This document shows positions 1-39,845 of a stretch of DNA of 39,845 bases, piece by piece. A program made the position numbers and the translations under genes. Source of the stretch: Escherichia phage vB_EcoP-101120B1-2. The stretch lies in the sequence record MZ234022.1; one strand, written 5' to 3'. The notes under the pieces are model-generated. The model ran no database searches and was not told where the DNA came from. It saw only the letters and a program-made list of their open reading frames with translations. Numbering within the stretch: position 1 is the stretch's first letter; each line of letters opens with the position of its first letter.

Positions 1-3000
1 ATGCAGGAGCAAGAGGACCGCTCTACGTGGTTCGGTTTCGGTGCGGCTACAGAAGCTGAAGTGAAGAACTCTATGGTCGGCGTGGCTATACGAGCTGGTC
101 AGACTGAGGACTCACTGGATGTCATTGGCGATGTGTTCAACCCAACCAGATGGAACAACCATAAGTGGTCTCGTGAGGAGCTAGACCAGATTCGTAACGC
201 TGGGGTTTTGCCTCAGTATTACGGAGTCATTACTGGTGGCTCTCCTCAGAACCTGACCGAGCTTATTAACTTGGCGCTTGAGAACCAGAAGTTGGACCAA
301 GAGAAGGCCAAGGCTGGGACTGGTGCTCAACTGGCGGCTGGTGTGATTGGTGCTGGCGTGGACCCTCTGACCTACGTTCCTATTGCTGGGCAGGTAGGTA
401 AAGGTGGTAAGCTAGTCAACAAGATGTTCACTGTGGCTGCTCAGTCTGGTGCTCTGGCTGGGGCATCCGAGATTGCTCGAACATCAGTTGCTGGTGGGGA
501 CGCTCATGTTGCTGAAGCTATCCTTGGTGGCGCTCTCTTCGGTGGTGGCATGACTGCTATCGCTGATGGACTAGGCAGAGCCTTAGGTCGCAACACTAAT
601 GAGTTTGCTGGTCCAGCTACACGTTTGGAAGCTCGTGAGACAGCTCGTAACGTTGATGGTCAGGACCTGTCCCGTCTCCCTATTCAGGAAGGTGAGCAGA
701 CCTTTAGTCATCAAGGCGTTAAGTTCGCTGACGTTCCGAATGAGCCGGGAAGTGTACGATTAGAAGACGGTTCAATCCTGATTGGTGAGAACCCTCTGAA
801 CCCTAAGACACGTCAAGTCTTTGACGAAGTGATTGAGCCGGAACGTGCCGCTGCTGGTGTGAACCTTGGTGGACTTACCGAGATTGGCCTGAAGCTGCTT
901 CGGTCTGAGAACCCTGAGATTCGTGGAGTAGCTGCTGACTTAGTGCGTTCACCTACTGGTATGCAGTCTGGGGCCTCAGGTAAAATCGGGACAACTGCGT
1001 CAGACGTGTTCGAGAGACTTCGTTCTGTGGACCATCGGTTCTACAACGACATCGACGATGCGGTTACTGAGGCACTAAAGGACCCGTACTTCCAGACTGC
1101 ATTCTGGCGAGACTCTGGCGCATTCCGTCAGGACATCTACCAGCGTGTGTCTATGGCTATCGAAGATGGTAGCGGAAACCTGAAGGCTGAACTGACTCCG
1201 GGAGAACTGAAAGTCTATGACCTACTGAAGAACCAGTTCGACGCCAAGCGTGAGATGATGGAGAACCCAGCGATGTTTGGTCGTCCAGACGCTCAGTCTA
1301 TCTTTCCGGGTAGCCGCTTCAAGGGAACCTACGTCCCTCATGTGTATAGCAAACAGATGAAGGAGCTGTACATCAAGGAGCTTGGGAGTCCAGAGGCGTT
1401 GCAGGAGGCCATCAAGAAGTCATGGTTGACCAGCTATGCGTCTCGACCTGAAGTCAAGAAACGCGTGGACGAGGCACTTTTAGAGGCTGACCCTACGTTG
1501 ACTCCAGAAGGACTTGCGGCTGCGGTCGATAAGTACGCCAACGATAAGGCTTATGGTATCTCTCACACCGAGCAGTTCGAGCGTTCATCCGTAATGGAGG
1601 AGAACATCAACGGGCTGGTGGGTCTGGAGAACAACAGCTTCCTTGAGGCTCGTAACCTGTTCGATAGCGATATGTCAATCGTTCTTCCTAACGGTCAGAC
1701 CTTCAGTGTCAACAACCTGCGTGAGTGGGACATGGACAAGATTGTCCCGGCCTACAACCGTCGAGTTAATGGTGATATTGCTATCATGGCTGGTACAGGC
1801 AAGACCACGAAGGAAATGAAGGACTTAGTTGAGACCATGATGAACAAGGCTGGCGATGACGGAAAGTTGAAAGGTGAAGTATCTACCTTACGTGACACCC
1901 TGAAGATTCTCACTGGTCGTGCTCGACGTGATGGTGCTGATGATGCGGCCTTCGCTACCGTGATGCGCACGATGACAGACCTATCGTTCTTCGCTAAGAA
2001 TGCCTACATGGGTGTTCAGAACTTAACGGAGATTGGTGGTATGCTGGCTCGTGGTAACGTTCGTGCACTGCTACACGGAGTACCGATGTTCCGTGACCTA
2101 GCCTTCCGTAACAAGAAGGTCGGGGCCTCGGAGATTAAGGACCTGCATAATGTTATCTTCGGTAAAGAATTAGACGACTCAATCCGTCCGTCTAAACAGG
2201 ATGTTATCGACCGTCTGCGATCTTACAGTGACCTTAGTCGTGGTACAGCTACAGCTCTGGGGACTGCTAAGTATTACACTGGTGAACTTGCAGTACGCTC
2301 TCCGTTCACTAAAGTCCTCAACGGTACGACCAACTACCTGTTAGATGCTGGACGTCAAGGCTTCCTGTCTGACATCGTGGAGCATAGCCTGACTGGTAGT
2401 AAGCGTAAGTTCGATGACCGCTGGCTGAAGACCGCTGGTATATCTGGCGAGCAGTGGAGTGGAATTAAGTCCCTAATCCGTGAGTCAGTGACTCGTGGGC
2501 CAGACGGGAAGTACACCATCAAGGATAAGAAGGCGTTCAGTCAGGACCCAAGGGCTATGGACCTGTGGCGTATGGGTGACACCATCGCTGACGAGACGTT
2601 ACTCCGGCCTCATAAGCTGTCAAACATGGACGCCAAGGCTTATGGTCCTCTCGCTAAGACTGTCCTTCAGTTTAAGAACTTCGTCATCAAGTCTATCAAT
2701 GGGAGAACCATGCGAACCTTCTATAACGCCACGAAGAACAACAGAGCGATTGACGCTGCACTGTCGACCGTGATGTCTATGGGTCTGGCTGGTATCTACT
2801 ACATGGCTCAGGCGCATGTCAAGGCTTATGCTATGCAGGATGGTCGAGACCGTGACTACCTTAAGCAAGCTCTGGACCCAACGATGATTGGCTATGCGGC
2901 CCTGTCCCGTAGTTCACATCTTGGTGGCCCACTTGGGGTAGCTAACATTCTGGGAGGCATCGCTGGATATGAGGACACTAAGATGCTCCGTTCGTCTATC

Positions 3001-3303
3001 CTACCTCGTTCTCCTACAGAGAAGCCTGAGCGTGCCATCGCGTATGGTGCAGCTACAAGTGACCCTGTGATGAATGTTGTTGGTAACTTCTTGGAGCAGG
3101 TTCCAGCTTTCGGATATGCTGCTAACGTTGGCGCTTCGGCTTACAACTTGGCTGGCTACCTCAAGGCTGATACTCGTGTCAACGAGCGTGACTACATGAC
3201 CGGGATGTATAATACGTTCCGTGAACTGGTTCCGAACGACCCCATTACCCAGAAGCTGCTGCTTGGAACGTTTGAGGAGCAAGGCATCCACATCAAGGAC
3301 TAA
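1..3303 (+). CDS. Internal virion (core/ejection) protein gp16, C-terminal 1100 aa; the ORF continues from 39261..39845 across the window boundary (circular permutation)
   Basis: Translation aligns along its length with T7 gp16 as recalled (e.g. RLEARETARN, VRSPTGMQSGASGK, GTYVPHVY, SRPEVK, LEARNLFDSD, NGTTNYLLDA, LVPNDP). Window end ...GET joins window start MQEQEDRSTWFGF in frame, matching T7 ...GETLDEYNSRSTFFGF. Confidence 0.9.
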   Translation: MQEQEDRSTWFGFGAATEAEVKNSMVGVAIRAGQTEDSLDVIGDVFNPTRWNNHKWSREELDQIRNAGVLPQYYGVITGGSPQNLTELINLALENQKLDQEKAKAGTGAQLAAGVIGAGVDPLTYVPIAGQVGKGGKLVNKMFTVAAQSGALAGASEIARTSVAGGDAHVAEAILGGALFGGGMTAIADGLGRALGRNTNEFAGPATRLEARETARNVDGQDLSRLPIQEGEQTFSHQGVKFADVPNEPGSVRLEDGSILIGENPLNPKTRQVFDEVIEPERAAAGVNLGGLTEIGLKLLRSENPEIRGVAADLVRSPTGMQSGASGKIGTTASDVFERLRSVDHRFYNDIDDAVTEALKDPYFQTAFWRDSGAFRQDIYQRVSMAIEDGSGNLKAELTPGELKVYDLLKNQFDAKREMMENPAMFGRPDAQSIFPGSRFKGTYVPHVYSKQMKELYIKELGSPEALQEAIKKSWLTSYASRPEVKKRVDEALLEADPTLTPEGLAAAVDKYANDKAYGISHTEQFERSSVMEENINGLVGLENNSFLEARNLFDSDMSIVLPNGQTFSVNNLREWDMDKIVPAYNRRVNGDIAIMAGTGKTTKEMKDLVETMMNKAGDDGKLKGEVSTLRDTLKILTGRARRDGADDAAFATVMRTMTDLSFFAKNAYMGVQNLTEIGGMLARGNVRALLHGVPMFRDLAFRNKKVGASEIKDLHNVIFGKELDDSIRPSKQDVIDRLRSYSDLSRGTATALGTAKYYTGELAVRSPFTKVLNGTTNYLLDAGRQGFLSDIVEHSLTGSKRKFDDRWLKTAGISGEQWSGIKSLIRESVTRGPDGKYTIKDKKAFSQDPRAMDLWRMGDTIADETLLRPHKLSNMDAKAYGPLAKTVLQFKNFVIKSINGRTMRTFYNATKNNRAIDAALSTVMSMGLAGIYYMAQAHVKAYAMQDGRDRDYLKQALDPTMIGYAALSRSSHLGGPLGVANILGGIAGYEDTKMLRSSILPRSPTEKPERAIAYGAATSDPVMNVVGNFLEQVPAFGYAANVGASAYNLAGYLKADTRVNERDYMTGMYNTFRELVPNDPITQKLLLGTFEEQGIHIKD

Positions 3304-3321
3304 ACTATCACTATAGGAAAC
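3299..3321 (+). promoter_or_regulatory. Phage RNA polymerase promoter (T7 phi17 position), motif TAAACTATCACTATAGGAAA
   Basis: One of 11 copies of the ACTATCACTATAGG core; lies in the gp16-gp17 intergenic gap, overlapping the gp16 stop codon. Confidence 0.75.
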
Positions 3322-3367: not shown

Positions 3368-5899
3368 ATGTCCACGATTACACAATTCCCTTCAGGAAAC
3401 ACTCAGTACAGGATTGAGTTCGACTACCTAGCCAGAACGTTTGTTGTTGTTACGCTGGTGAATAGCTCTAACCCTACCCTGAACCGTGTACTGGAAGTTG
3501 GTCGAGATTACCGATTCCTTAATCCAACGATGATTGAGATGTTGGTTGACCAATCAGGTTTCGACATAGTTCGTATTCACCGTCAGACTGGAACTGACTT
3601 AGTGGTAGATTTCAGGAATGGCTCAGTGTTGACAGCTAGTGACCTGACCAATTCAGAGCTTCAGGCTATCCATATTGCAGAAGAAGGTCGAGACCAAACG
3701 GTTGACTTAGCGAAGGAATATGCCGATGCTGCTGGTAGCTCTGCTGGCAACGCTAAGGATAGCGAGGACGAAGCACGCCGAATCGCTGCGAGTATCAGGG
3801 AAGCTGGTCTAATTGGCTATATTACCCGTCGCTCCTTCGAGAAAGGCTACAACGTTACAACATGGAGCGAGGTCCTGCTATGGGAAGAGGATGGTGATTA
3901 TTACCGCTGGGATGGTACGCTTCCAAAGAACGTTCCTGCTGGTTCAACTCCTGAAACTTCCGGTGGGATTGGATTAGGTGCGTGGGTTAGTGTTGGTGAT
4001 GCTGCTTTAAGAAGTCAGATTTCAAACCCGGAAGGGGCAATACTCTACCCGGAATTGCAGATGGCAAGATGGCGTGATGAGGGTGATGTTCGAGGCTGGG
4101 GTGCTAAAGGGGATGGTGTAACAGATAGTACGGAGAATATAGCTGCTTCACTAAGTTCTCAAAAAGCTGTCGTAGCATCAGAAGGTGTATTCTCTAGTTC
4201 TGGTATTAATAGTAATTACTGTAACTTAGACGGTAGGGGTAGTGGCGTGCTAAGTCACCGTTCCAGTACAGGTAACTACTTAGTATTTAACAATCCACGT
4301 ACAGGTCGCTTAAGTAATATTACGGTAGAAAGTAATAAGGCGACTGATACAACTCAGGGACAGCAGGTATCTCTTGCGGGTGGAAGCGATGTTACTGTAA
4401 GTGACGTTAACTTCTCAAACGTTAAAGGTACTGGTTTCAGTTTAATCGCATACCCTAATGATGCGCCACCTGATGGACTTATGATTAAAGGCATTCGAGG
4501 TAGCTATTCCGGCTATGCTACTAATAAGGCAGCCGGATGCGTACTTGCTGACTCCTCAGTTAACTCCCTCATAGATAACGTTATTGCTAAGAACTACCCT
4601 CAGTTCGGAGCAGTAGAGTTGAAAGGTACAGCCAGTTACAACATAGTCAGTAATGTTATAGGGGCAGATTGCCAGCATGTAACTTACAACGGCACTGAAG
4701 GGTCAATAGCTCCTTCTAATAACATTATAAAGGGGGTGATGGCTAATAACCCTAAGTATGCAGCGGTTGTTGCAGGCAAAGGAAATACTAACTTAATCTC
4801 AGACGTGCTCGTAGATTACTCAACTTCTGATGCTAGCCAGGCTCATGGCGTTACCGTAGAAGGGTCTGATAACGTCATAAATAATGTGCTTATGTCAGGA
4901 TGTGATGGTACTAACTCTTTAGGACAAAGGCAGACTGCTACAATTGCACGCTTTATAGGTACAGCTAATAACAACTATGCGTCTGTATTTCCTAGCTACA
5001 GTGCTACAGGTGTTATTACTTTCGAATCCGGCTCTACCCGTAACTTCGTAGAGGTAAAACACCCTGGCAGGAGAAACGACCTTCTCAGTTCTGCTAGTAC
5101 TATTGACGGTGCAGCTACTATTGACGGCACTAGTAATAGTAACGTAGTGCACGCACCTGCCTTAGGGCAGTACATAGGTAGTATGTCAGGTAGGTTCGAA
5201 TGGTGGATTAAGTCCATGTCACTCCCTTCAGGCGTTCTTACTTCTGCTGATAAGTACAGAATGCTTGGGGATGGTGCTGTGTCATTAGCTGTAGGTGGTG
5301 GTGCATCTTCTCAAGTTCGACTATTTACTTCTGATGGTATTTATCGGACAGTGTCCCTCACCAACGGCAACGTGCGTCTTCCTACCAGTAGCACAGGTTA
5401 TTTGCAGTTAGGTTCTAATGCAATGACCCCAGATAGTACTAATACATACGCATTAGGTTCCGCAAGTCGAGCATGGTCTGGCGGTTTTACTCAATCAGCA
5501 TTCACTGTTGTCTCAGATGCTAGGGATAAAACAGAGCCTCTTAATATCTCAGATGCTTTACTGGATGCTTGGTCTGAAGTTGACTTTGTGCAGTTTCAGT
5601 ACTTGGACCGAATTGAGGAGAAGGGTGCAGACTCAGCTAGATGGCACTTCGGCATCATCGCTCAGCGAGCTAAGGAGGCCTTCGAACGTCACGGTATAGA
5701 TGCACATCGCTATGGCTTCCTGTGCTTCGACAGTTGGGATGATGTATACGAGGAAGATGCCAATGGCTATCGTAAACTGATTACACCAGCAGGTTCCCGC
5801 TACGGTATTCGTTACGAGGAAGTACTGATATTAGAGGCTGCGTTGATGCGGCGTACTATTAAGCGTATGCAGGAAGCATTAGCTGTTATGTCTAAGTGA
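3368..5899 (+). CDS. Tailspike protein (gp17 homolog): T7-like N-terminal adaptor domain, pectate-lyase-like beta-helix depolymerase body, C-terminal intramolecular chaperone domain
   Basis: SD CAAAGGAGG upstream of ATG. N-terminus EFDYLARTFVVVTLV resembles T7 gp17 FEYLARKFVVVTLI. Central motif WGAKGDGVTDSTENIAAS is typical of pectate-lyase-3 beta-helix tailspikes. C-terminus carries SDARDK (Ser716, Lys721) in the spacing of the peptidase S74 Ser-Lys dyad. Confidence 0.85.
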   Translation: MSTITQFPSGNTQYRIEFDYLARTFVVVTLVNSSNPTLNRVLEVGRDYRFLNPTMIEMLVDQSGFDIVRIHRQTGTDLVVDFRNGSVLTASDLTNSELQAIHIAEEGRDQTVDLAKEYADAAGSSAGNAKDSEDEARRIAASIREAGLIGYITRRSFEKGYNVTTWSEVLLWEEDGDYYRWDGTLPKNVPAGSTPETSGGIGLGAWVSVGDAALRSQISNPEGAILYPELQMARWRDEGDVRGWGAKGDGVTDSTENIAASLSSQKAVVASEGVFSSSGINSNYCNLDGRGSGVLSHRSSTGNYLVFNNPRTGRLSNITVESNKATDTTQGQQVSLAGGSDVTVSDVNFSNVKGTGFSLIAYPNDAPPDGLMIKGIRGSYSGYATNKAAGCVLADSSVNSLIDNVIAKNYPQFGAVELKGTASYNIVSNVIGADCQHVTYNGTEGSIAPSNNIIKGVMANNPKYAAVVAGKGNTNLISDVLVDYSTSDASQAHGVTVEGSDNVINNVLMSGCDGTNSLGQRQTATIARFIGTANNNYASVFPSYSATGVITFESGSTRNFVEVKHPGRRNDLLSSASTIDGAATIDGTSNSNVVHAPALGQYIGSMSGRFEWWIKSMSLPSGVLTSADKYRMLGDGAVSLAVGGGASSQVRLFTSDGIYRTVSLTNGNVRLPTSSTGYLQLGSNAMTPDSTNTYALGSASRAWSGGFTQSAFTVVSDARDKTEPLNISDALLDAWSEVDFVQFQYLDRIEEKGADSARWHFGIIAQRAKEAFERHGIDAHRYGFLCFDSWDDVYEEDANGYRKLITPAGSRYGIRYEEVLILEAALMRRTIKRMQEALAVMSK
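5516..5896 (+). other. Predicted auto-cleaved C-terminal intramolecular chaperone domain of the tailspike (residues 717-843); cleavage predicted after Ser716
   Basis: SDARDK motif with Ser and Lys five residues apart, followed by a roughly 125-aa domain, as in the endosialidase/T5 L-shaped fibre chaperone domains (recalled from literature). Confidence 0.5.
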
Positions 5900-6123
5900 G
5901 TAATACTGGTACGGTATTTCGCACAATGAAATCGTTGAACACACTGACGAGGAGGGTAATGTCACTACTACGGAAGAACCTGTATACACCGAGGTGGTTA
6001 TTCACGAAGAGGGTGAGGAGTGGGGGTGTTCGGCCTGACGGAATTTTCTTTGCTGAAGCCGCTTATCAGAGAAGAAAACTGGAAAGAATCGAAGCCAGAC
6101 TTTCTGCTCTTGAACAGAAGTAA
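5896..6123 (+). CDS. Hypothetical basic protein between tailspike and holin; start uncertain (GTG 5896, ATG 5926 or ATG 5959)
   Basis: ORF from the track. Arg/Lys-rich with a C-terminal coiled-coil-like segment (RRKLERIEARLSALEQK). No well-spaced SD for any candidate start; T7 has no gene here. Confidence 0.25.
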   Translation: MSNTGTVFRTMKSLNTLTRRVMSLLRKNLYTPRWLFTKRVRSGGVRPDGIFFAEAAYQRRKLERIEARLSALEQK

Positions 6124-6688: not shown

Positions 6689-6692
6689 GTGT

Positions 6693-6789: not shown

Positions 6790-7233
6790 ATGCTCGAATT
6801 TTTAAAGAGAGCGGCTCCGTGGTTACTTGCAGCAGTGATGTTTGCTGGTGGCTACCACACCGCTAACAATAAGTGGGAGGCTAAGGTAAATGCAGAATAC
6901 ACCTCGAATCTTAAGGCATCGGAGGATACAAGGCTTGCTGTCCAAGCTGAAGTCAACAAAGTGTCCAAACGGTTTCAGGACGAAATGTCCTCGCTGGAAG
7001 GCAGCACTGACAGGATTATTGCTGACCTTCAGTCTGACAATAAGCGGCTGCGCATCCGAGTCAAACCTACGAGTGGAACCACGCAAAGTGACGGTCGATG
7101 CGTCATTGATGGTTACGCCGAACTTGACGAACGAGATGCTAAACGTCTTATCTCCATCGGACTGAAAGGGGACGCTTGGATTAAAGCACTACAGGATACT
7201 ATCCGCAAACTTCAACAAGACAAGGAGAAATGA
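6790..7233 (+). CDS. Rz-like i-spanin (gp18.5 homolog)
   Basis: MLEFLKRAAPWLLAAVMFAGG N-terminal TM segment; ...STDRIIADLQSDNKRLRIRVK...DERDAKRLI...GDAWIKALQDTIRKLQ matches T7 gp18.5 as recalled. Confidence 0.85.
   Translation: MLEFLKRAAPWLLAAVMFAGGYHTANNKWEAKVNAEYTSNLKASEDTRLAVQAEVNKVSKRFQDEMSSLEGSTDRIIADLQSDNKRLRIRVKPTSGTTQSDGRCVIDGYAELDERDAKRLISIGLKGDAWIKALQDTIRKLQQDKEK
6890..7165 (+). CDS. Rz1-like o-spanin lipoprotein (gp18.7 homolog), embedded in the +1 frame of the Rz gene
   Basis: Contains lipobox-like LTISGC followed by ASES...VDASLMVTPNLTNEMLNV, matching T7 gp18.7. Embedded Rz/Rz1 architecture. Exact start uncertain. Confidence 0.65.
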   Translation: MQNTPRILRHRRIQGLLSKLKSTKCPNGFRTKCPRWKAALTGLLLTFSLTISGCASESNLRVEPRKVTVDASLMVTPNLTNEMLNVLSPSD

Positions 7234-7670
7234 TGCTCAGTGATTCGTATTTCTATGATGAGTCCAGTAAGTCTGGCCTGAAGTCCCTGCGTTCTGGTAA
7301 GGATGTGGGGTGTGTGGGAAACCACGGGTATTATCAGGTAGGAACTCGACGTCATGGACTCCTGCTGGCCCATAGAGTCGTCTGGGAGCTAACCAACGGT
7401 CCTATACCAGAAGGGATGGAGATTGACCATATCGACCGCTGCCGGACTAACAACAGGCTGGACAACCTCCGGCTAGTTACTTCAAGCGAGAACTCCTGCA
7501 ACACCTCAGGACATTCCGACTCAAAGACTGGAGTTAAGAACATATCGTTCCATCAGAATGGCTACGCTATCGAGGTCATGCGTAAGGGGGTCCGTATGCG
7601 AACAACACGTCCTACTTTAGAGGAGGCTATCTCTGTCCGGGACCTAATGCTGGAGGGACTCTATGTCTAA
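7230..7670 (+). CDS. HNH homing-endonuclease-like protein inserted between the spanin and large-terminase genes
   Basis: Motif [30 protein letters not shown] (His-Asn-Asn HNH core with Cys ligands); ATGATG start after SD AAGGAGA; overlaps the gp19 start by 8 nt. Absent at this position in T7. Confidence 0.75.
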
Positions 7671-9429
7671 GAAAACACCTGCTGAAAGACAGGCTGAAAT
7701 GACCCAAAGGATGAGGGACGACTTCGTGTTCTTCATCTTCGTTCTCTGGAAAGCGCTGAGCCTTCCGGTTCCAACCAGATGTCAGATAGATATGTGTAAG
7801 AAGCTGGCTGCTGGCGATAACCGACGCTTCATCCTTCAGGCGTTCCGAGGTATTGGCAAATCGTTTCTGACCTGTGGTTTCGTGGTCTGGAAGCTATGGA
7901 ATAACCCAGACTTGAAGTTCATGATTGTGTCGGCCTCAAAGGAGCGAGCCGATGCTAACTCCATCTTCATCAAGCGAATCATCGACCTCATGCCTCAGCT
8001 TCAGGAACTCAAACCTAAGCAGGGACAGCGAGATGCGGTTATTAGCTTCGACGTGGGACCTGCCAAGCCAGACCACTCACCTTCGGTTAAGTCCGTTGGT
8101 ATCACTGGTCAGTTGACTGGTAGTCGTGCTGACATCCTGATTGCCGATGACGTGGAGGTTCCGAACAACTCAGCGACTCAGGCTGCACGAGACCGTCTAT
8201 CAGAGCTTGTGAAAGAGTTCGACGCTATCCTGAAGCCGGGAGGTACGATCATCTATCTGGGTACTCCTCAGAACGAGATGACCCTGTACCGTGAGCTGGA
8301 AGGTCGTGGGTACACCACTACTATCTGGCCCGCTCGTTATCCACGCGACAGGAAGGACTGGCAGTCTTACGGCGACCGTCTGGCTCCTATGCTTCAGGCA
8401 GAGCTGGAAGAGGACCCTGAGTCCTTCTACTGGCGTCCGACTGATGAAGTACGCTTCGATGATACGGACCTGAAGGAACGTGAGCTGTCCTACGGTAAAG
8501 CTGGCTTCGCTCTACAGTTCATGCTTAACCCGAACCTGAGTGATGCCGAGAAGTACCCTCTTAAGCTCCGTGACCTTATCGTAGCCGACTTGGACCCAGC
8601 GTCCAGCCCAATGGCCTACCAATGGTTGCCGAACCCTCAGAACAAGCGTGAGGACGTTCCTAACGTTGGACTCATGGGTGACTCGTACCACACGTATCAG
8701 ACTGTAGGTTCTGCCTTCAGCTCATACACCCAGAAGATTCTGGTCATTGACCCTAGTGGTCGTGGTAAGGATGAAACTGGATATGCGGTACTGTACCAGC
8801 TCAACGGCTACATCTTCGCTATGGAAGTTGGTGGCATGCGTGGTGGTTATGAATACTCTACGCTGGAAGCCTTGGCTAAGATTGGTCGTAAGTGGAGGGT
8901 AAACGAATACGTCATTGAGGGTAACTTCGGTGATGGTATGTACCTTGAGCTATTCAAGCCTGCATCGGCCCGTATCCATCCTGCGGCTGTAACTGAAGTG
9001 AAGAGTAAGGGTCAGAAAGAACTACGCATCTGTGACGTTCTGGAGCCTATCATGGGGTCTCACAGACTTATCGTTAACGCTGCTGCTATCGTCCAAGACT
9101 ACCAGACAGCCTCTGACAAGGATGGTGTTCGTAACCCTATCTACTCTCTATTCTATCAGATGACACGTATCTCTCGTGAGCGTGGAGCCTTGGCACACGA
9201 TGACCGACTTGATGCGCTGGCTATCGGTGTACAGTTCTTCGTTGAGTCGATGGCTAAGGATGCCAACAAAGGCGAACGTGAAGTCACTGAGGAATGGCTG
9301 GAGGAACAGATGGAGAACCCACGGAAAGGCTTCGAGTCCATCCACACTGAGTTCTGGGACAATGGGGTCCGGGTAACTCACGATACGGACGACGAGCTTG
9401 GACTAGGGTCATACGTTACGTTCCACTAG
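7663..9429 (+). CDS. Terminase large subunit / DNA maturation protein B (gp19 homolog)
   Basis: 588 aa; long stretches match T7 gp19 ([91 protein letters not shown]). Confidence 0.95.
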
Positions 9430-9523: not shown

Positions 9524-9546
9524 ACTTAACTATCACTATAGGGAAG
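9524..9546 (+). promoter_or_regulatory. Phage RNA polymerase promoter near the right genome end (phiOR-like), CTTAACTATCACTATAGGGAAG
   Basis: Core ACTATCACTATAGG, downstream of the gene 19 stop. Confidence 0.7.
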
Positions 9547-9726
9547 ACCCCCGGTTACTTATAGTATTACTGTAGTGAATATACATATGCAGACTTTATG
9601 CAAGACCTTAGGAGGCAGACTCCGAGTTCTTACCTAAGGCTTGCACCGATGGAAGGAGGGTGATATTAATCATAATCCCTCCAATACAGATAGTCACCGA
9701 CCATAGATACAGGAGGTATGTAGCAT

Positions 9727-10121: not shown

Positions 10122-10310
10122 TCTCACAGTTCAAGAACATCAAGTCTCCCCCATAGGCCTCTTTCAGTCCAGACCAAAGGCCCTACCCCAGTCTATCATA
10201 AGGTTGGACCGATGGTCAAGACTTCAGGTCAACGATAGGTTGTGGCTATGGCTTAGGGAAGGACGATAGGTTGGGACTATGGGTCTGTCTTTGAGTCTCT
10301 ATCTGTATCA
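10122..10310. repeat. Predicted direct terminal repeat / concatemer junction region (present once in this circular assembly); genome left end predicted near 10122
   Basis: TCTCACAGTT...CCCCCATAGG...GTCTGTCTTTGAGTCTCTATCTGT resembles the T7 left end TCTCACAGTG...CCCCCATAGGGGG...GTTTGTCTTTGGGTG...CCCTATCTGTTACAGTC as recalled. Boundaries are approximate. Confidence 0.3.
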
Positions 10311-10507: not shown

Positions 10508-10536
10508 TTGACTACAGGTCCAGACTATGGCTTAAT
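10508..10536 (+). promoter_or_regulatory. Host sigma70-type early promoter (T7 A1-like): -35 TTGACT, 17-bp spacer, -10 CTTAAT
   Basis: TTGACT at 10508-10513 and CTTAAT at 10531-10536; downstream ACGACACGGCAAC resembles the T7 A1 transcribed region ACACGGCGAA. Confidence 0.45.
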
Positions 10537-10648
10537 AGCTTCCGTCAACACGACACGGCAACAACCGGATAGTGAAGACGCCGGGTCATCCCGGTTAAGT
10601 AGACAGCCTGATAAGTCATACGAACAACAGGCAGATGACAGAAAGTAG

Positions 10649-10678
10649 TTGACAAGATGTACCGACTTAAAGTAGTAT
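10649..10678 (+). promoter_or_regulatory. Host sigma70-type early promoter (T7 A2/A3-like): -35 TTGACA, 18-bp spacer, -10 TAGTAT
   Basis: GTAGTTGACAAGATGTACCGACTTAAAGTAGTATGTACCACATC resembles T7 A3 TTGACAACATGAAG...TACGATGTACCACATG. Confidence 0.45.
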
Positions 10679-11116: not shown

Positions 11117-11118
11117 GA

Positions 11119-11171: not shown

Positions 11172-11199
11172 ACATAATTAACTTTGAGAGGATATAACT

Positions 11200-11706
11200 A
11201 TGGAACGTAATGCTAACGCATACTATGAGCTGCTGGCTGCAACCGTTGAGGCATTTATCGAGCGTATTCAGTACGACCACCTGACTCAAGATGATGACTA
11301 CAGCGATGCGCTGCATGAGGTCGTAGACGGTCAGGTTCCACACTATTACCACGAGATTTTTACGGTGATGGCTGCTGATGGTATAGACCACGAGTTCGAA
11401 GACTCTGGGCTGATGCCTGAAACCAAGGACGTAACGCGTATCCTACAAGCTCGCATCTATGAGGCGCTTTATAACGATGTGTCTAATAGCTTGGATGTAG
11501 TCTGGTTTGAGGATGAAGAGGCAGAAGAAGAGGATGAATATTGGGTAGTTGACGCTAAAACAGGCGCAATAATTGTGCAAGCTGTAGCTCTTGAGGTCGC
11601 TACTGCATGTACCAAGGTTAACTATGCGGCAGGTCGCCACCTGAAGGTGGAAGACATCAATGATAACGTAGTGTTCGACCCTGCGGCTGAGGACTGCGAG
11701 CGATGA
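11200..11706 (+). CDS. ocr: Ocr-like DNA mimic (gp0.3 homolog, anti-restriction) with an extra C-terminal region of about 45 aa
   Basis: [43 protein letters not shown] matches T7 Ocr [43 protein letters not shown]. The acidic run [10 protein letters not shown] corresponds to the T7 C-terminus but the ORF continues (168 vs 117 aa). Confidence 0.85.
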
Positions 11707-12993: not shown

Positions 12994-13016
12994 ACTTAAC
13001 TATCACTATAGGACTC
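12994..13016 (+). promoter_or_regulatory. Phage RNA polymerase promoter immediately upstream of the RNA polymerase gene, CTTAACTATCACTATAGGACTC
   Basis: Core ACTATCACTATAGG; +1 about 75 nt upstream of the gene 1 ATG; leader contains direct repeats AAGTGAAAGAC x2. Confidence 0.7.
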
Positions 13017-13085: not shown

Positions 13086-15767
13086 ATGAGCGTCATCTCT
13101 ATTGACAAACACGACTTCTCTGATGTGTCGAACGCCATTGAGCCGTTTAACCTGCTGGCTGACCACTACGGGCAAGACCTTGCAGTCAAACAGCTTCAGC
13201 TTGAGCATGAGGCCTACACTGAAGGTGAGCGACGTTTCATCAAGAACCTTGAGCGTCAGACCGAGCGAGGGGAACTGGCAGACAATCAGGTCGCCAAGCC
13301 TTTGATGCAGACTCTGGTTCCTAAGATTGCGCAAGCCGTCAAGGAGTGGCACGAAGGTCCAGACGGGAAGCTGTCAACCTCACGTCCGAGCGTAGCGTTC
13401 ACCATGTTAAGCACTGAAGAGAAGGCCGTCAAGGACCGCTCTCTTCGCATCTCCTGCGAGTCTGCTGCGGTTATCATACTGAAGGTCATCCTCTCCAAGC
13501 TGGTCAAGCCTGAAGGTATACCGATTACACCGATGGCCTCCGCGATAGGTCGCACACTTGAGGATGAAATCCGATTCGGTCGCATTCGTGACAAGGAGAA
13601 GGAGCACTTCAAGAAGGCGATAGCTGATAACCTGAACAAGAGAGCCGGGGCATCATACAAGAAAGCCTACATGCAAGCGGTCGAGACATCCATGCTGGAG
13701 CAAGGCCAACTAGAAGATGCGTGGGGAACTTGGAGTCCGACCGAGGCTGTCCACGTTGGAATCAAGATGCTGGAGATTGTCATACAGTCAACACAACTGG
13801 TCAAGCTTAAGCGTTACGGTGCTGGCAATGCAGCGGCTGACGTTGAGATGGTCCACCTGTCAGACTTCTGGGTCAAGAAGATGGCACAACGAGGATTCAG
13901 CCTTGCGGGTATCGCCCCAGTCTACCAGCCTTGCGTCGTTCCGCCTAAGCCGTGGACTGGTGTCGTAGGCGGTGGGTATTGGGCCAAAGGTCGAAGACCA
14001 TTGCCACTGATTCGCTTAGGGTCTAAGTCTGCGGTAGCACGTTATGAAGACGTATACATGCCTGAAGTCTATGAAGCTGTGAATATCATCCAGAATACAC
14101 CTTGGAAAGTGAACAAGAAGGTATTGGACGTGGTGAACAGGGTCGAGAAGCTGAACAACACGCCTATTAATGACATCCCTCAGATGGAACCGCTGAAGCC
14201 TGAGGACTATGCTGGTGAAACCGAGGAGGAACTCAAGGCATGGAAGAAGGCTGCTGCTGGTATCTATCGCCGCGAGAAGGCCAGACAGTCACGCAGATTA
14301 TCACTGAGCTTTATCGTTAACCAAGCAAACAAGTTCTCTCAGTTCAAGGCCATCTGGTTCCCGTACAACATGGATTGGCGAGGTCGTGTCTACGCTGTCC
14401 CGATGTTCAACCCTCAGGGTAACGACATGCAGAAGGGGCTCCTGACTCTGGCAGTCGGCAAGCCTATTGGTGCTGACGGTTTCAAATGGCTGAAGGTCCA
14501 CGGTGCAAACTGTGCGGGTGTCGATAAAGTCACCTTCGATGAGCGCATCAAGTGGGTGGAAGACAACCACGAAAACATCATGGCTGCTGCTAAGGCACCG
14601 ATGGATAGCATTGAGTGGTGGGGCAAGTTAGACTCTCCGTTCTGCTTCCTAGCGTTCTGCTTCGAGTATGCTGGCGTAATGCACCACGGCTTGTCTTACT
14701 CCTGCTCGCTGCCGATAGCGTTCGATGGGTCCTGCTCTGGGATTCAGCACTTCAGCGCTATGCTTCGCGACCACATCGGTGGACATGCAGTAAACCTGAC
14801 GCCATCCGGTAAGGTCCAAGACATCTACCGCATCGTGTCTGACCGCATTGAGGAGGAGCTTAAAGTCCTACTGGTTAACGGTACGGACAACGAGATGGTA
14901 ACTCACGAGGACAAGAAAACTGGTGAGATTACCGAGCGTCTCAAGCTGGGGACACGAGAGCTTGCCCGTCAGTGGCTGACCTACGGTATGTCACGAAAGG
15001 TCACTAAGCGTTCGGTCATGACTCTGGCCTACGGGTCGAAAGAGTACGGCTTCGCAGACCAAGTTTACGAGGACATCGTGATGCCAGCGATTGACTCAGG
15101 GTCTGGCGCTATGTTCACTGAACCAAGCCAAGCAGCTCGCTTCATGGCTAAGATGATTTGGGAAGCTGTGAGTGTGACCGTAGTTGCTGCGGTTGACGCG
15201 ATGAAATGGCTTCAGGGTGCTGCCAAGCTGCTTGCTGCTGAAGTGAAGGACAAGAAGACTGGAGAAATCCTGAAGCCTTGTCTTCCGGTACACTGGGTCA
15301 CACCTGATGGTTTCCCTGTCTGGCAGGAATACCGAAAGAAGGACACCACTCGTCTGAACCTGATGTTCTTAGGGTCATTCAACCTTCAGCCTACCGTCAA
15401 CAAAGGCACGAAGAAAGAGCTGGACAAGCACAAGCAGGAGTCAGGCATTAGCCCGAACTTCGTCCACTCACAAGATGGTAGCCACCTCCGCAAGACTGTA
15501 GTCCACACGCACCGCAAATATGGCGTGATGTCATTCGCAGTGATTCACGATAGCTTCGGGACCATCCCGGCTGACGCTGAGTATCTGTTCCGTGGAGTCC
15601 GTGAGACGATGGTCGAGACCTACCGCGACAACGATGTGCTGCTTGACTTCTACGAGCAGTTTGAATACCAGCTTCACGAGAGCCAGAGAGACAAGTTGCC
15701 TGAGCTTCCTAAGAAAGGTAAACTGAATATCGAAGACATCTTGTCTTCAGACTTTGCATTCGCTTAA
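13086..15767 (+). CDS. Single-subunit DNA-dependent RNA polymerase (gp1 homolog)
   Basis: 893 aa, collinear with T7 RNAP (883 aa): RFGRIRD, FQPCVVPPKPWTG, AIWFPYNMDWRGRVYAV, FNPQGNDM, DGSCSGIQHFSAMLRD, VTKRSVMTLAYGS, FVHSQDGSHLR, IHDSFGT, C-terminal DFAFA. Confidence 0.98.
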   Translation: MSVISIDKHDFSDVSNAIEPFNLLADHYGQDLAVKQLQLEHEAYTEGERRFIKNLERQTERGELADNQVAKPLMQTLVPKIAQAVKEWHEGPDGKLSTSRPSVAFTMLSTEEKAVKDRSLRISCESAAVIILKVILSKLVKPEGIPITPMASAIGRTLEDEIRFGRIRDKEKEHFKKAIADNLNKRAGASYKKAYMQAVETSMLEQGQLEDAWGTWSPTEAVHVGIKMLEIVIQSTQLVKLKRYGAGNAAADVEMVHLSDFWVKKMAQRGFSLAGIAPVYQPCVVPPKPWTGVVGGGYWAKGRRPLPLIRLGSKSAVARYEDVYMPEVYEAVNIIQNTPWKVNKKVLDVVNRVEKLNNTPINDIPQMEPLKPEDYAGETEEELKAWKKAAAGIYRREKARQSRRLSLSFIVNQANKFSQFKAIWFPYNMDWRGRVYAVPMFNPQGNDMQKGLLTLAVGKPIGADGFKWLKVHGANCAGVDKVTFDERIKWVEDNHENIMAAAKAPMDSIEWWGKLDSPFCFLAFCFEYAGVMHHGLSYSCSLPIAFDGSCSGIQHFSAMLRDHIGGHAVNLTPSGKVQDIYRIVSDRIEEELKVLLVNGTDNEMVTHEDKKTGEITERLKLGTRELARQWLTYGMSRKVTKRSVMTLAYGSKEYGFADQVYEDIVMPAIDSGSGAMFTEPSQAARFMAKMIWEAVSVTVVAAVDAMKWLQGAAKLLAAEVKDKKTGEILKPCLPVHWVTPDGFPVWQEYRKKDTTRLNLMFLGSFNLQPTVNKGTKKELDKHKQESGISPNFVHSQDGSHLRKTVVHTHRKYGVMSFAVIHDSFGTIPADAEYLFRGVRETMVETYRDNDVLLDFYEQFEYQLHESQRDKLPELPKKGKLNIEDILSSDFAFA

Positions 15768-16314: not shown

Positions 16315-16337
16315 CCTAAACTATCACTATAGGCTTA
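16315..16337 (+). promoter_or_regulatory. Phage RNA polymerase promoter (phi1.1 position), CTAAACTATCACTATAGGCTTAG
   Basis: Core motif, intergenic. Confidence 0.75.
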
Positions 16338-18122: not shown

Positions 18123-18181
18123 CGTCAACCCAGTGGTCTTAGGACTGCTGGGTTTCTTTGCTTCTGGGCCACCAGCTAGAC

Positions 18182-18204
18182 CCTAAGCTATCACTATAGG
18201 ACAA
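18182..18204 (+). promoter_or_regulatory. Phage RNA polymerase promoter (phi1.5/1.6 position), CCTAAGCTATCACTATAGGACAA
   Basis: Core CTATCACTATAGG with one upstream substitution. Confidence 0.7.
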
Positions 18205-18992: not shown

Positions 18993-19151
18993 ATGACTGA
19001 CGTAGAGAAGAAGTACATCGTGGAGCTTGAGGGTCGCATTCAGTCCTTCGAGGTTCCGGTGTACGCAAAGTCTCTTGAAGAGGCTACCCTGAAGTCCCAA
19101 GAGTATGAGGACGCTGGGTTTGTGGTCGGACGGATTCGCCCTGAGACCTAA
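18993..19151 (+). CDS. gp2 homolog (inhibitor of host RNA polymerase), 52 aa
   Basis: [33 protein letters not shown] matches T7 gp2 [42 protein letters not shown]. Below the track threshold. Confidence 0.75.
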
Positions 19152-19169
19152 ACTATCACTGTAGGACAG
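19147..19169 (+). promoter_or_regulatory. Phage RNA polymerase promoter variant (phi2.5 position), CTAAACTATCACTGTAGGACAGA
   Basis: Core with A to G change (CACTGTAGG instead of CACTATAGG). Confidence 0.6.
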
Positions 19170-21588: not shown

Positions 21589-21667
21589 GTCTCCATAGCT
21601 CAAACGGTAGAGCGGTGGGTCGTGATGGCCTATTGCGATTAGGGTTCGAATCCCCGTGGAGACGCCA
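21589..21667 (+). tRNA. tRNA-like element: canonical acceptor stem, D-arm, T-arm and 3' CCA, but a non-canonical anticodon region (possible degenerate tRNA or tRNA-like processing signal)
   Basis: GTCTCCA (21589-95) pairs perfectly with TGGAGAC (21657-63), followed by G and CCA. D-arm GCTC-AAACGGTA-GAGC. T-arm TAGGG-TTCGAAT-CCCCG with one A-C mismatch. No 5-bp stem with a 7-nt loop and U33 could be folded in the intervening 26 nt. Confidence 0.4.
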
Positions 21668-21678: not shown

Positions 21679-23382
<1,704 letters not shown>

Positions 23383-27273: not shown

Positions 27274-27296
27274 ACTAAACTATCACTATAGGGACT
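27274..27296 (+). promoter_or_regulatory. Phage RNA polymerase promoter (phi6.5 position), CTAAACTATCACTATAGGGACTT
   Basis: Core motif, intergenic. Confidence 0.75.
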
Positions 27297-28530: not shown

Positions 28531-30099
28531 ATGGCTGAACGTGAAGGGTTCGCTGCTGAAGGAGCCAAAGCGGTCTATGACCGACTGAAGAACGGTAGAC
28601 AGCCATATGAGACACGCGCTCAGAACTGTGCTGCTGTCACTATCCCGTCACTGTTTCCTAAGGAGTCCGACAACTCGTCTACTGAGTACACCACTCCGTG
28701 GCAATCTGTGGGTGCTCGCTGCTTGAACAACTTGGCTGCGAAGCTGATGTTGGCATTATTCCCTCAGTCACCGTGGATGCGACTTACAGTCTCCGAATAT
28801 GAGGCAAAGACCTTGAGTCAGGACTCAGAGGCGGCTGCTCGTGTTGATGAAGGGCTGGCTATGGTCGAGCGTGTGTTGATGGCTTACATGGAGACTAACA
28901 GTTTCCGTGTCCCATTATTCGAGGCGCTGAAGCAGCTTATCGTCTCAGGTAACTGCCTGCTCTACATCCCTCCTCCAGAACAAGGAACCTACAGTCCTAT
29001 GCGAATGTACCGCTTAGTGTCCTACGTTGTTCAACGTGATGCTTTCGGTAACATCTTACAGATTGTGACTCTCGACAAGGTAGCGTTTAGTGCTCTACCG
29101 GAAGACGTGAAGTCTCAACTCAACGCAGACGACTATGAGCCTGACACCGAGCTTGAAGTGTATACGCACATCTACCGTCAGGACGACGAGTATCTGCGCT
29201 ACGAGGAAGTGGAAGGCATTGAGGTGACAGGTACCGATGGTTCCTACCCGCTGACTGCATGTCCATACATCCCGGTACGAATGGTTCGACTGGATGGTGA
29301 AGACTACGGTCGTTCTTACTGCGAGGAGTATCTGGGCGACCTCAACTCGCTGGAGACGATTACAGAAGCTATCACAAAAATGGCTAAGGTAGCCTCCAAG
29401 GTGGTGGGCCTCGTTAACCCGAACGGTATCACGCAACCTAGACGTCTGAACAAGGCGGCTACAGGTGAGTTCGTGGCTGGTCGAGTTGAGGACATCAACT
29501 TCCTGCAACTGACGAAAGGTCAGGACTTTACGATTGCTAAGTCGGTGGCTGACGCTATCGAGCAACGTTTAGGCTGGGCCTTCCTTCTTAATAGTGCTGT
29601 TCAGCGTAATGCCGAGCGTGTCACTGCTGAAGAGATTCGTTATGTTGCTGGCGAACTGGAGGCGACCTTAGGTGGCGTGTACTCAGTACAGTCACAAGAG
29701 CTTCAGTTGCCTATCGTCCGTGTGCTGATGAACCAACTTCAGTCTGCTGGCATGATTCCAGACCTTCCGAAAGAAGCGGTAGAGCCTACGGTCTCCACTG
29801 GTCTGGAAGCGTTAGGTCGTGGTCAGGACTTAGAGAAGCTGACTCAGGCAGTCAACATGATGACCGGGCTACAGCCTCTACAACAGGACCCAGACATTAA
29901 CTTGCCTACACTGAAGCTGCGACTGCTGAATGCCTTAGGCATTGACACCGCTGGTCTGCTACTGACTCAGGACGAGAAGTTGCAACGCATGGCTGAACAA
30001 TCCGCTCAAGGAGCTGTGGTCAATGGTGCGTCTGCTGCTGGTGCTAACATGGGTGCTGCTGTGGGTCAGGGAGCTGGTGAGGACATGGCTCAAGCCTAA
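28531..30099 (+). CDS. Portal (head-tail connector) protein (gp8 homolog)
   Basis: 522 aa, SD AAGGAGG, at the T7 gene 8 position; acidic flexible C-terminus. Confidence 0.9.
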   Translation: MAEREGFAAEGAKAVYDRLKNGRQPYETRAQNCAAVTIPSLFPKESDNSSTEYTTPWQSVGARCLNNLAAKLMLALFPQSPWMRLTVSEYEAKTLSQDSEAAARVDEGLAMVERVLMAYMETNSFRVPLFEALKQLIVSGNCLLYIPPPEQGTYSPMRMYRLVSYVVQRDAFGNILQIVTLDKVAFSALPEDVKSQLNADDYEPDTELEVYTHIYRQDDEYLRYEEVEGIEVTGTDGSYPLTACPYIPVRMVRLDGEDYGRSYCEEYLGDLNSLETITEAITKMAKVASKVVGLVNPNGITQPRRLNKAATGEFVAGRVEDINFLQLTKGQDFTIAKSVADAIEQRLGWAFLLNSAVQRNAERVTAEEIRYVAGELEATLGGVYSVQSQELQLPIVRVLMNQLQSAGMIPDLPKEAVEPTVSTGLEALGRGQDLEKLTQAVNMMTGLQPLQQDPDINLPTLKLRLLNALGIDTAGLLLTQDEKLQRMAEQSAQGAVVNGASAAGANMGAAVGQGAGEDMAQA

Positions 30100-30117
30100 A
30101 CTATCACTATAGGAACA
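30095..30117 (+). promoter_or_regulatory. Phage RNA polymerase promoter (phi9 position), CTAAACTATCACTATAGGAACAA
   Basis: Core motif overlapping the gp8 stop. Confidence 0.75.
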
Positions 30118-31074: not shown

Positions 31075-31097
31075 ACTAAACTATCACTATAGGGAGA
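31075..31097 (+). promoter_or_regulatory. Phage RNA polymerase promoter (phi10 position), CTAAACTATCACTATAGGGAGAC
   Basis: Best match to a TATAGGGAGA initiating sequence, upstream of the major capsid gene. Confidence 0.8.
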
Positions 31098-31199: not shown

Positions 31200-32249
31200 A
31201 TGGCAAACGTTCCGGGTCAGAAAGTTGGTACAGACCAAGGTAAAGGCAAATCTGGTTCCGACGCTCTGGCGTTGTTCCTGAAGGTCTTTGCTGGTGAAGT
31301 CCTGACCGCATTCACTCGCCGCTCTGTAACTGCTGACAAGCATATTGTCCGTACCATTCAGAACGGTAAGTCTGCTCAGTTCCCGGTCATGGGACGCACC
31401 TCTGGGGTGTATCTGGCTCCGGGTGAGCGACTGTCCGATAAGCGTAAAGGTATCAAACATACCGAGAAAGTGATTACCATTGATGGTCTGCTGACTGCCG
31501 ATGTGATGATTTTCGACATTGAAGACGCGATGAACCACTATGACGTGGCTGGCGAGTACTCCAACCAGTTGGGCGAAGCTCTGGCTATCGCTGCCGATGG
31601 TGCGGTACTGGCTGAGATGGCTATTCTGTGTAACCTACCGGCTACATCTGATGAAAACATCGCTGGTCTTGGCAAAGCGTCTGTGCTGGAAGTTGGTACT
31701 AAAGCAGACCTGAACACTCCGGCTAAGCTGGGTGAAGCAATCATCGGTCAACTGACCATTGCTCGTGCGAAGCTGACATCCAACTACGTTCCTGCTGGCG
31801 ACCGTTACTTCTACACCACGCCGGACAACTACTCTGCAATCCTCGCGGCTCTGATGCCGAACGCTGCTAACTATGCTGCGCTGATTGACCCAGAGACTGG
31901 TAACATCCGTAACGTAATGGGCTTCGTGGTTGTTGAAGTTCCACACTTGACTCAGGGTGGTGCTGGGGAAACTCGTGGTGCCGATGGTATCACTATTGCG
32001 ACTGGTCAGAAGCACGCCTTCCCAGCTACTGCTACTGGTGATGTTAAAGTTGCTCTGGACAACGTTGTGGGCCTGTTCTCTCACCGTTCTGCTGTAGGTA
32101 CTGTTAAGCTGCGTGACTTGGCGCTGGAACGTGACCGTGACGTCGATGCTCAGGGCGACCTGATTGTTGGTAAGTACGCTATGGGTCACGGTGGTCTGCG
32201 TCCAGAAGCAGCAGGCGCACTGGTTTTCACAGCGGCGTCAGCGGGTTAA
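31200..32249 (+). CDS. Major capsid protein (gp10A homolog)
   Basis: 349 aa; LALFLKVF..GEVLTAF, GKSAQFPV, HTEKVITIDGLLTADV, MNHYDV, ILAALMPNAANYAALIDPE, IRNVMGF, VVEVPHLT, HRSAVGTVKLRDLALER, KYAMGHGGLRPEAAG match T7 gp10A. Confidence 0.98.
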   Translation: MANVPGQKVGTDQGKGKSGSDALALFLKVFAGEVLTAFTRRSVTADKHIVRTIQNGKSAQFPVMGRTSGVYLAPGERLSDKRKGIKHTEKVITIDGLLTADVMIFDIEDAMNHYDVAGEYSNQLGEALAIAADGAVLAEMAILCNLPATSDENIAGLGKASVLEVGTKADLNTPAKLGEAIIGQLTIARAKLTSNYVPAGDRYFYTTPDNYSAILAALMPNAANYAALIDPETGNIRNVMGFVVVEVPHLTQGGAGETRGADGITIATGQKHAFPATATGDVKVALDNVVGLFSHRSAVGTVKLRDLALERDRDVDAQGDLIVGKYAMGHGGLRPEAAGALVFTAASAG

Positions 32250-32512: not shown

Positions 32513-32517
32513 TTGAA

Positions 32518-32557
32518 ACCCCTTGGGTGCCTTCGGGTGCTTGAGGGGTTTTTTTTG
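32518..32557 (+). terminator. Tphi-like intrinsic terminator (hairpin plus T8 run)
   Basis: AACCCCTTGGGTGCCTTCGGGTGCTTGAGGGGTTTTTTTT resembles T7 Tphi AACCCCTTGGGGCCTCTAAACGGGTCTTGAGGGGTTTTTTG. Confidence 0.8.
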
Positions 32558-32571
32558 CTTAAGGAGGGACT

Positions 32572-35840: not shown

Positions 35841-35890
35841 AAGGGCCTATAGATTTACCTTAACTATCACTATAGGGACTATAGGCCCTT
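35841..35890 (+). repeat. Perfect 12-bp inverted repeat (AAGGGCCTATAG / CTATAGGCCCTT) bracketing the gene 13 promoter (candidate processing hairpin, R13 position)
   Basis: Arms at 35841-35852 and 35879-35890 are exact reverse complements; the promoter core lies in the 26-nt loop. Confidence 0.5.
35858..35880 (+). promoter_or_regulatory. Phage RNA polymerase promoter (phi13 position), CTTAACTATCACTATAGGGACTA
   Basis: Core motif, intergenic between genes 12 and 13. Confidence 0.75.
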
Positions 35891-39256: not shown

Positions 39257-39260
39257 CATA

Positions 39261-39845
39261 ATGGCGACTCGTGGTATTCGCAATAACAATCCGGGTAACA
39301 TCCGGGTAAGTAAGGACCAATGGGAAGGAATGACTGGAGATGATGGCGCATTCGTCACCTTCGATAGTCCAGAGTCTGGCGTCCGAGCTTTAGGTAAAAA
39401 CCTGCTGTCCTACGGTCGCCAAGGTTATGATTCCATCGAGAAGATTATCAACAGATGGGCACCTCCTAACGAGAACGACACTAAGGCTTATATTGACTCA
39501 GTGGTGGCTGCAACTGGTATTCCAGCTACACAGAGTCTCGACCTATCGGACCCTGACACCCTGTCTTCTCTGGCACAAGCTATCAGCTTCCATGAGACAG
39601 GCTCACGGTACGACCCTGAAGTCTATCAGAAGGGAGTCGCACGGGCACTCAACGGCATTAGCCCAAAGACTCCACCAGTAAGCGCTAACGTATTTGACGC
39701 ACTCACGGAAGGACTCAAGGCTAAACCTAAAGTAGCTCTGGGTGAGAACCTTCCGACCGCTGCTGGTCTGAACATTGAGGGTCAAGCACCTGAATCTCCC
39801 AACGAATCGTTCGGTGAGATGTTCTATAAGGCTACTGGAGAGACC
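39261..39845 (+). CDS. Internal virion protein gp16, N-terminal 195 aa (ORF continues at position 1); this domain does not resemble the T7 gp16 lytic transglycosylase domain
   Basis: SD AAGGAG upstream of ATG; open to the window end and joins 1..3303 in frame. MATRGIRNNNPGNIRVSKDQWEGMTGDDGAFVTFDSPESGVRALGKNLLSYGRQGYDSIEKIINRWAPP... lacks the T7 AWTESRF motif. Confidence 0.85.
   Translation, partial: MATRGIRNNNPGNIRVSKDQWEGMTGDDGAFVTFDSPESGVRALGKNLLSYGRQGYDSIEKIINRWAPPNENDTKAYIDSVVAATGIPATQSLDLSDPDTLSSLAQAISFHETGSRYDPEVYQKGVARALNGISPKTPPVSANVFDALTEGLKAKPKVALGENLPTAAGLNIEGQAPESPNESFGEMFYKATGET

Follow-up and report, generated by a model that had tools for sequence, protein, structure and literature searches.

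Does Escherichia phage vB_EcoP-101120B1-2 encode an RNA polymerase with a promoter specificity of its own, and is its DNA circularly permuted? Both had been claimed in an original prediction made from sequence record MZ234022.1, in which a short motif recurs along the genome and gene 16 is split between the two ends. We analysed this whole stretch of 39,845 nucleotides (nt), referred to here as the window, and compared its repeated motif, its polymerase gene and its ends with those of related phages. The window almost certainly holds a single genome unit of a K1F-like phage of the T7 group (genus Kayfunavirus, subfamily Studiervirinae), deposited as a rotated circle in which the terminal repeat is collapsed to one copy, and carrying promoters and a polymerase of the K1F type.

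The repeated motif forms a bounded set of eleven sites

The exact 16-mer AAACTATCACTATAGG occurs five times in the window (at 3302, 16318, 27277, 30098 and 31078), with none expected in shuffled sequences, and its exact 13-mer core CTATCACTATAGG occurs nine times. Variants of one or two bases, CTATCACTGTAGG with its predicted start base (+1) at 19164 and CTATCACCTTAGG with +1 at 21538, bring the total to eleven, every one on the plus strand. The eleven copies originally reported therefore stand as eleven same-strand sites but not as exact repeats, and ten of their eleven start coordinates stand as given, the remaining one (21537) being correctly 21538. In dinucleotide-preserving shuffles the mean number of matches was 0.87, and none of 100 shuffles reached eleven. 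A weight matrix spanning −17 to +6, trained on the same eleven sites that it scores, gave these sites 28 to 37 bits, while the next best positions on either strand scored 14.5 and then 7. Because of this large gap, the set is sharply bounded at exactly eleven. The only promoter-like site below it (27298-27320, CCTAAGATATGACTATAAGATAG, 14.5 bits, with the score position given as 27320) follows the phi6.5-type promoter by 29 nt and probably represents a degenerate duplicate.

The sites share the consensus (A/C)CT(A/T)AACTATCACTATAGG(A/G)A and sit 32-144 nt upstream of gene starts. Positions −12 to −8 read ACTAT in 10 of 11 sites and GCTAT in the other, followed by CACTATAGG, which is the pattern of K1F-class promoters. 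The sites (−17 to +6) and their counterparts in K1F are:

3299..3321, plus strand: phi17 equivalent, +1 G at 3316, 52 nt before gene 17; K1F site 32614.
9524..9546, plus strand: phiOR equivalent, +1 G at 9541, downstream of gene 19; K1F site 38869.
12994..13016, plus strand: promoter with +1 G at 13011, 75 nt upstream of the RNA polymerase gene; K1F site 2491.
16315..16337, plus strand: promoter at a phi1.1-type position, +1 G at 16332; K1F site 5569.
18182..18204, plus strand: promoter at the phi1.5/1.6 position, +1 G at 18199, with G at −12; K1F site 7200.
19147..19169, plus strand: promoter variant CACTGTAGG at the phi2.5 position (before gene 2.5), +1 G at 19164; the same variant occurs in K1F (8516) and in phage Ro45lw.
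21521..21543, plus strand: promoter variant CACCTTAGG at the phi3.8 position (before gene 4), +1 G at 21538; the same variant occurs in K1F at 10883.
27274..27296, plus strand: promoter at the phi6.5 position, +1 G at 27291; K1F site 17194.
30095..30117, plus strand: promoter at the phi9 position, +1 G at 30112; K1F site 20015.
31075..31097, plus strand: promoter at the phi10 position, +1 G at 31092, the sole site with a full GGGAGA start; K1F site 21014.
35858..35880, plus strand: promoter at the phi13 position, +1 G at 35875; K1F site 25338.

When the K1F promoters were read directly from the K1F genome (DQ111067), the motif was found 11 times on the coding strand, one-for-one with the window sites and with both variants included. 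Compared with T7, the sites read ACTA in place of CGAC at −12 to −9, whereas the core from −7 to +2, CACTATAGG, is common to both phages. Cross-searches with up to three mismatches, for the T7 core in the window and for the K1F-type core in T7, returned one chance-level match each, and the statement that the motif differs from the T7 promoter was borne out. The statement that the sites lie where T7 has its own promoters holds for ten of them; the site at 13011 has no T7 counterpart, as T7 carries no phage promoter directly upstream of gene 1, while both the window and K1F do. A promoter in this place makes the polymerase gene a natural 'autogene' and implies that synthesis of the enzyme feeds back positively on itself; the arrangement is not new, since K1F has it. 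Conversely, T7 has 17 promoters to the window's 11, and its phiOL, 1.3, 4c, 4.3 and 4.7 promoters have no counterpart here.

In every property the repeated motif agrees with the promoters of T7-group phages. We also considered that it could be a dispersed repeat that serves some function besides the initiation of transcription, for instance as a signal for recombination or packaging. Some T7 promoters do serve replication too, the 9541 and 13011 sites have about 52 nt of upstream similarity in common, and start sites in this phage are placed from sequence and from relatives. Against this, all eleven sites lie on the coding strand just 5' of gene blocks, the −7 to +2 core is that of T7-group promoters, and a polymerase 94% identical to that of the window starts in vitro at the predicted G on this very sequence (PMC12272871). 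A non-transcriptional repeat is accordingly left with hardly any probability, and we treat the eleven sites as promoters below.

The polymerase and its promoters belong to the K1F class

The enzyme expected to read these promoters is encoded early in the window:

13086..15767, plus strand: gene 1, single-subunit RNA polymerase of 893 amino acids with a K1F-type specificity loop (residues 749-771, YRKKDTTRLNLMFLGSFNLQPTV); Pfam PF00940 and PF14700.

Relative to K1F gp1 the enzyme has nine substitutions in 893 residues (99% identity), none of them in the specificity loop; its identity to T7 RNA polymerase is 62.8% (tblastn) or 64% (MAFFT alignment). Alignment of the loop region with T7 and K1F, a check similar to one that the original prediction had proposed with T7, T3 and K11, showed that the loop (T7 residues 739-761) differs from that of T7 and equals that of K1F, YRKKDTTRLNLMFLGSFNLQPTV. 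The T7 base contacts R746, N748 and Q758 are kept, while Q754 is replaced by Ser, R756 by Asn and I761 by Val, the combination that defines the K1F class. We took the pairing of promoters with loop residues from Table 2 of PMC11880802, in which 754S/756N/761V (the K1F graft of Temme et al.) recognises ACTAT at −12 to −8 and T7 recognises CGACT.

This pairing has been exploited and assayed before. The K1F loop placed in a T7 backbone was active in vivo on its predicted promoter and orthogonal to T7, T3 and N4-type pairs (Temme et al., 2012; PMC3458549). More recently, the polymerase of Ro45lw was purified, its minimal promoter was defined as ACTTAACTATCACTATAGGGA and its start G was mapped by RNA 5'-end sequencing (Takatsuki et al., 2025; PMC12272871), with in vitro initiation at the G of ...CACTATAGGGA. 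That minimal promoter is identical to the window sites at 9541 and 13011 through +2. The Ro45lw enzyme has 94% identity with that of the window and the same residues at T7 positions 746, 748, 754, 756, 758 and 761, but the two differ by 53 substitutions, including Met to Leu at the equivalent of T7 M750, and the assays were made with the Ro45lw enzyme. In a 2026 genome note on a further Kayfunavirus, the repeat CTWAACTATCACTATAGG is described and read as promoters (PMC13298934).

The original prediction had gone further and proposed a polymerase with its own specificity, which we take to mean a new one, unlike that of every characterised T7-group polymerase. The modest identity to the T7 enzyme and the promoter bases at −12 to −9, with neither consensus recurring in the other genome beyond a chance-level match, are what such a proposal would lead one to see. 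It fails on the comparison with K1F: promoters and loop are identical to those of K1F, the same eleven sites are present there, all nine substitutions relative to K1F gp1 fall outside the loop, polymerases at least 95% identical to that of the window are found in 173 phage records, and the pair has been in print since 2012. We consider a specificity of the phage's own to be extremely improbable. Because loop and promoters are identical to those of K1F, the pair as read from the genome is assigned to the K1F class, with a predicted specificity that differs from those of T7, T3 and K11 and is not new.

The rotated ends belong to the record, and the virion DNA most likely has fixed ends

We then considered the two ends of the window, which fall within gene 16:

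39261..39845, plus strand: gene 16 (internal virion protein / lytic transglycosylase), N-terminal 195 codons, continuing at window position 1.
1..3303, plus strand: gene 16, C-terminal 1100 codons and stop, completing the frame from 39261..39845.

Joined across the ends, these two parts form one 1295-codon open reading frame with a single terminal stop, as had been predicted. The joined product aligns with the whole of K1F gp16 at 97.5% identity and without gaps, and the DNA here is likewise colinear with K1F across the join. An 800-nt probe with the join at its midpoint matched 193 phage records without interruption, with 99.9% identity in three of these. Since the join is contiguous in these independent records and in K1F, it is authentic and not the chimeric join inside gene 16 that the original prediction had named among the findings that would undo it. 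The view of the window as one full T7-like genome unit laid out as a rotated circle is upheld, complete except, probably, for one copy of the terminal repeat.

That repeat is located as follows:

10122..10299, plus strand: probable direct terminal repeat, single (collapsed) copy matching the K1F repeat; probable physical left end at 10122 (TCTCACAG...).

Both copies of the K1F 178-base-pair (bp) terminal repeat (1-178, identical to 39527-39704) map to this stretch at 93% identity, and it begins with TCTCACAG, as do the terminal repeats of T7. The window holds one copy, and a second cannot show in a collapsed circular assembly. The near-identical GenBank records MZ234023 and MZ234044-47 start at the identical base inside gene 16. 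From the single K1F-like repeat and this shared start it follows that the rotation is a property of the assembly and deposited record, so that 'circularly permuted', as the genome had been called, describes the record and not the virus. Virion DNA that is truly permuted, as by headful packaging, or an assembly chimera at the gene 16 join would also give a window whose two ends join in frame and in which the repeat has no second copy. Such readings would leave unexplained the 193 contiguous records, the single K1F repeat homologue with its T7-type end, the arbitrary start shared by the sibling records and the annotated terminal repeat (190 bp) of Ro45lw, also a Kayfunavirus, and we regard them as very improbable. 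In the virion, the DNA is most likely a linear molecule with fixed ends that starts near 10122 and exceeds the window by about 178 bp.

Imperfect repeats of about 25 nt (CTACCTACAGTCATCGACC...) at 9684-9708, 10044-10068, 10338-10362 and 10370-10394 flank the terminal repeat on both sides, recalling the short repeat arrays beside the terminal repeats of T7.

The window is a Kayfunavirus genome with near-identical siblings

Over its whole length the window has 99.8-100% DNA identity with GenBank records MZ234023 and MZ234044-47, all classified as Kayfunavirus (Studiervirinae). MZ234023 is phage vB_EcoP-101120B2 and MZ234044-47 are phages PM129, PM131, PM137 and PM139; gene order, promoters and a tRNA-like insert are as in the window. 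MZ234023 differs from the window by 7 mismatches and by a 55-bp copy-number difference at about 11118-11183, the only length difference between the two; the genomes of the PM phages exceed the window by about 350 bp. These relatives were described by Loose et al. (2021; PMC8614997), who list 101120B1-2 (MZ234022) as a Kayfunavirus with the same host strain.

K1F is colinear with 88% of the window, with identities of 72-96% per block. Expressed as identity multiplied by aligned fraction, intergenomic similarity is 0.82 to K1F, 0.998 to MZ234023 and 0.24 to T7 (V01146). By the convention of the International Committee on Taxonomy of Viruses, genera are delimited at a similarity of about 70%, and the similarity to K1F, the type phage of Kayfunavirus, exceeds this value. 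The colinear blocks shared with K1F, the annotation of MZ234023 and Pfam matches also reveal the T7-type gene order and early single-subunit RNA polymerase gene expected of the genus. Genes that anchor this order include:

7663..9429, plus strand: gene 19, terminase large subunit (MZ234023 annotation).
11200..11706, plus strand: gene 0.3, Ocr anti-restriction protein (MZ234023 annotation; the K1F gene 0.3 region is colinear).
21682..23382, plus strand: gene 4, primase/helicase (MZ234023 annotation).

Three points weigh against the assignment of the window as a K1F-like genome unit with K1F-type promoters: the variant sites at 19164 and 21538 may be weak or inactive, the start sites used in this particular isolate are deduced from its sequence and its relatives, and the collapsed assembly hides the physical ends. 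We nevertheless hold to that assignment with high confidence.

A T7-like transcription programme is proposed

By position and analogy with T7, transcription would most likely follow a T7-like course. The elements concerned, beyond the eleven promoters and gene 1, are:

10508..10678, plus strand: two candidate host sigma-70 early promoters (TTGACT at 10508; TTGACA-18-TAGTAT at 10649-10678), placed by consensus matches.
18127..18154, plus strand: early-terminator-like hairpin after the ligase gene (T7 TE position), a 12-bp stem followed by a T-rich tail.
32515..32560, plus strand: Tphi-like terminator, hairpin and T run after the capsid gene (17-bp stem, −25.4 kcal/mol, z = −4.8).

After injection, host RNA polymerase would transcribe the early region from the putative sigma-70 promoters just right of the left end, producing a transcript that would cover gene 0.3 (Ocr) and gene 1 and extend up to the hairpin past the ligase gene; in T7, TE lies directly after gene 1.3. 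The gene 1 polymerase would then recognise the eleven 23-bp promoters, (A/C)CT(A/T)AACTATCACTATA followed by GG(A/G)A, and start at the first G. Promoter choice would be set by the specificity loop, in which Ser, Asn and Val at T7 Q754, R756 and I761 would read ACTAT (−12 to −8) and not CGACT. From these promoters the DNA-metabolism and virion genes, all on one strand, would be driven, and the predicted Tphi-like hairpin could act as terminator.

Two 64-nt direct repeats, 98% identical, were also observed in the early region (10791-10854 and 11939-12002), where they fold into long hairpins with an internal loop. By their position these are candidates for RNase III sites like those of the T7 early RNA. 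The 55-bp stretch whose copy number differs in MZ234023 (11118-11183) lies near these repeats.

A tRNA-like insert precedes gene 4

One insertion relative to K1F separates the phi3.8-type promoter from the ribosome-binding site of gene 4. It is 84 nt long, spans exactly 21585-21668 and contains the following element:

21589..21667, plus strand: tRNA-like element (pseudo-tRNA); Rfam tRNA model, ARAGORN.

The Rfam tRNA model scores it at 38.7 bits against a gathering score of 29, and a scan of the window with Rfam at gathering thresholds returned nothing else. ARAGORN reads it as a 79-nt tRNA-Ser(UGA) with an encoded CCA end. T7 has an RNase III site, R3.8, at the corresponding position. Among 158 phage records with a match to the region, 34 contain the element, under labels that vary (tRNA-Thr, tRNA-OTHER, pseudo-tRNA), and a 'pseudo-tRNA' at this position in several kayfunaviruses has been reported in a paper on a Kosakonia phage (PMC8402661).

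Across seven copies the acceptor stem (perfect in the window), the D arm and the T loop are conserved. Two changes are compensatory: pair 2-74 goes from U-A to C-G in pO91, and a T-stem pair goes from G-C to A-U in Kc166A. The anticodon loop varies freely, and ARAGORN assigns a Ser, Thr, Met or stop anticodon depending on the copy. In the copy from the Kosakonia phage, what looked like a further covariation in the acceptor stem was rejected as a one-base register shift in the alignment.

The element had no match in 5,426 E. coli genomes, and its exact D-arm pattern had none in 185,579 bacterial and archaeal genomes, with one matching contig in IMG/VR; an origin from a host tRNA was not shown by these searches. 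In its pattern of conservation the insert looks like a tRNA-shaped RNA that does not decode. A functional RNA element is possible, though we think it rather doubtful; cuts by RNase P and the tRNA 3'-processing enzymes might, for example, release the gene 4 mRNA, or the element might act as a decoy for tRNA-targeting host enzymes.

The tailspike and other genes depart from K1F

One difference from K1F concerns the tailspike:

3368..5899, plus strand: gene 17, tailspike with a T7-type N-terminal adaptor, a K5 (heparosan) lyase body and a C-terminal endosialidase-type chaperone domain (Pfam PF03906, PF18668, PF13884).

Its product matches the K5 lyase of PDB 2x3h (E = 1e-287) over residues 242-716 and PDB 9vvr over its full length. 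In the genome comparison the tailspike region 4127-5909 had no K1F match; the body of the K1F tailspike is an endosialidase, and the window carries a K5 lyase in its place. In MZ234023 the protein is annotated as 'hypothetical protein' only. A K5-lyase tailspike predicts specificity for K5-encapsulated E. coli, which is relevant to the therapy of urinary-tract infection, the purpose for which these phages were isolated.

Homing endonuclease genes and the DNA polymerase gene are arranged differently in the two phages:

7230..7670, plus strand (insertion 7228-7710): HNH homing endonuclease open reading frame between genes 18.5 and 19 (PF13392, 1.8e-21).
23623..25794, plus strand: gene 5, DNA polymerase, uninterrupted (open reading frame and MZ234023 annotation).

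The HNH reading frame overlaps the start of the terminase gene by 8 nt, and K1F has none between genes 18.5 and 19. Conversely, the DNA polymerase gene of K1F is split by a homing endonuclease that the window lacks.

The capsid gene raises the possibility of a second product:

31200..32249, plus strand: gene 10A, major capsid protein (MZ234023 annotation).

The −1 frame has no stop for about 110 codons (32174-32512), a stretch that begins shortly before gene 10A ends, and a GGTTTTC heptamer at about 32221-32227 precedes the 10A stop by 23-29 nt. This arrangement suggests a T7-style 10B frameshift product (minor capsid protein) with a C-terminal module unlike that of K1F. The segment 32243-32662 had no K1F counterpart in the genome comparison, and in relatives the tail of the −1 frame is annotated as a separate hypothetical protein.

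Comparison with known systems

The literature already covers this phage and its genus, as well as the promoter consensus and the polymerase specificity. The polymerase/promoter pair is already a synthetic-biology part and has little weight as a discovery. The practical value of the analysis lies in the correct reading of the record, which is rotated and probably one repeat copy short, with a true left end probably at 10122 and virion DNA probably about 178 bp longer.

In its overall plan the window is like T7: both have a single-subunit RNA polymerase and 23-bp promoters, and a host-transcribed early region, terminators past genes 1.3 and 10, and terminal repeats are probable features of the window that T7 also has. 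The closer system is K1F, the type species of Kayfunavirus, which was reportedly sequenced in 2005. Gene order is common to K1F and the window, while K1F has different early genes at window positions 11854-12462.

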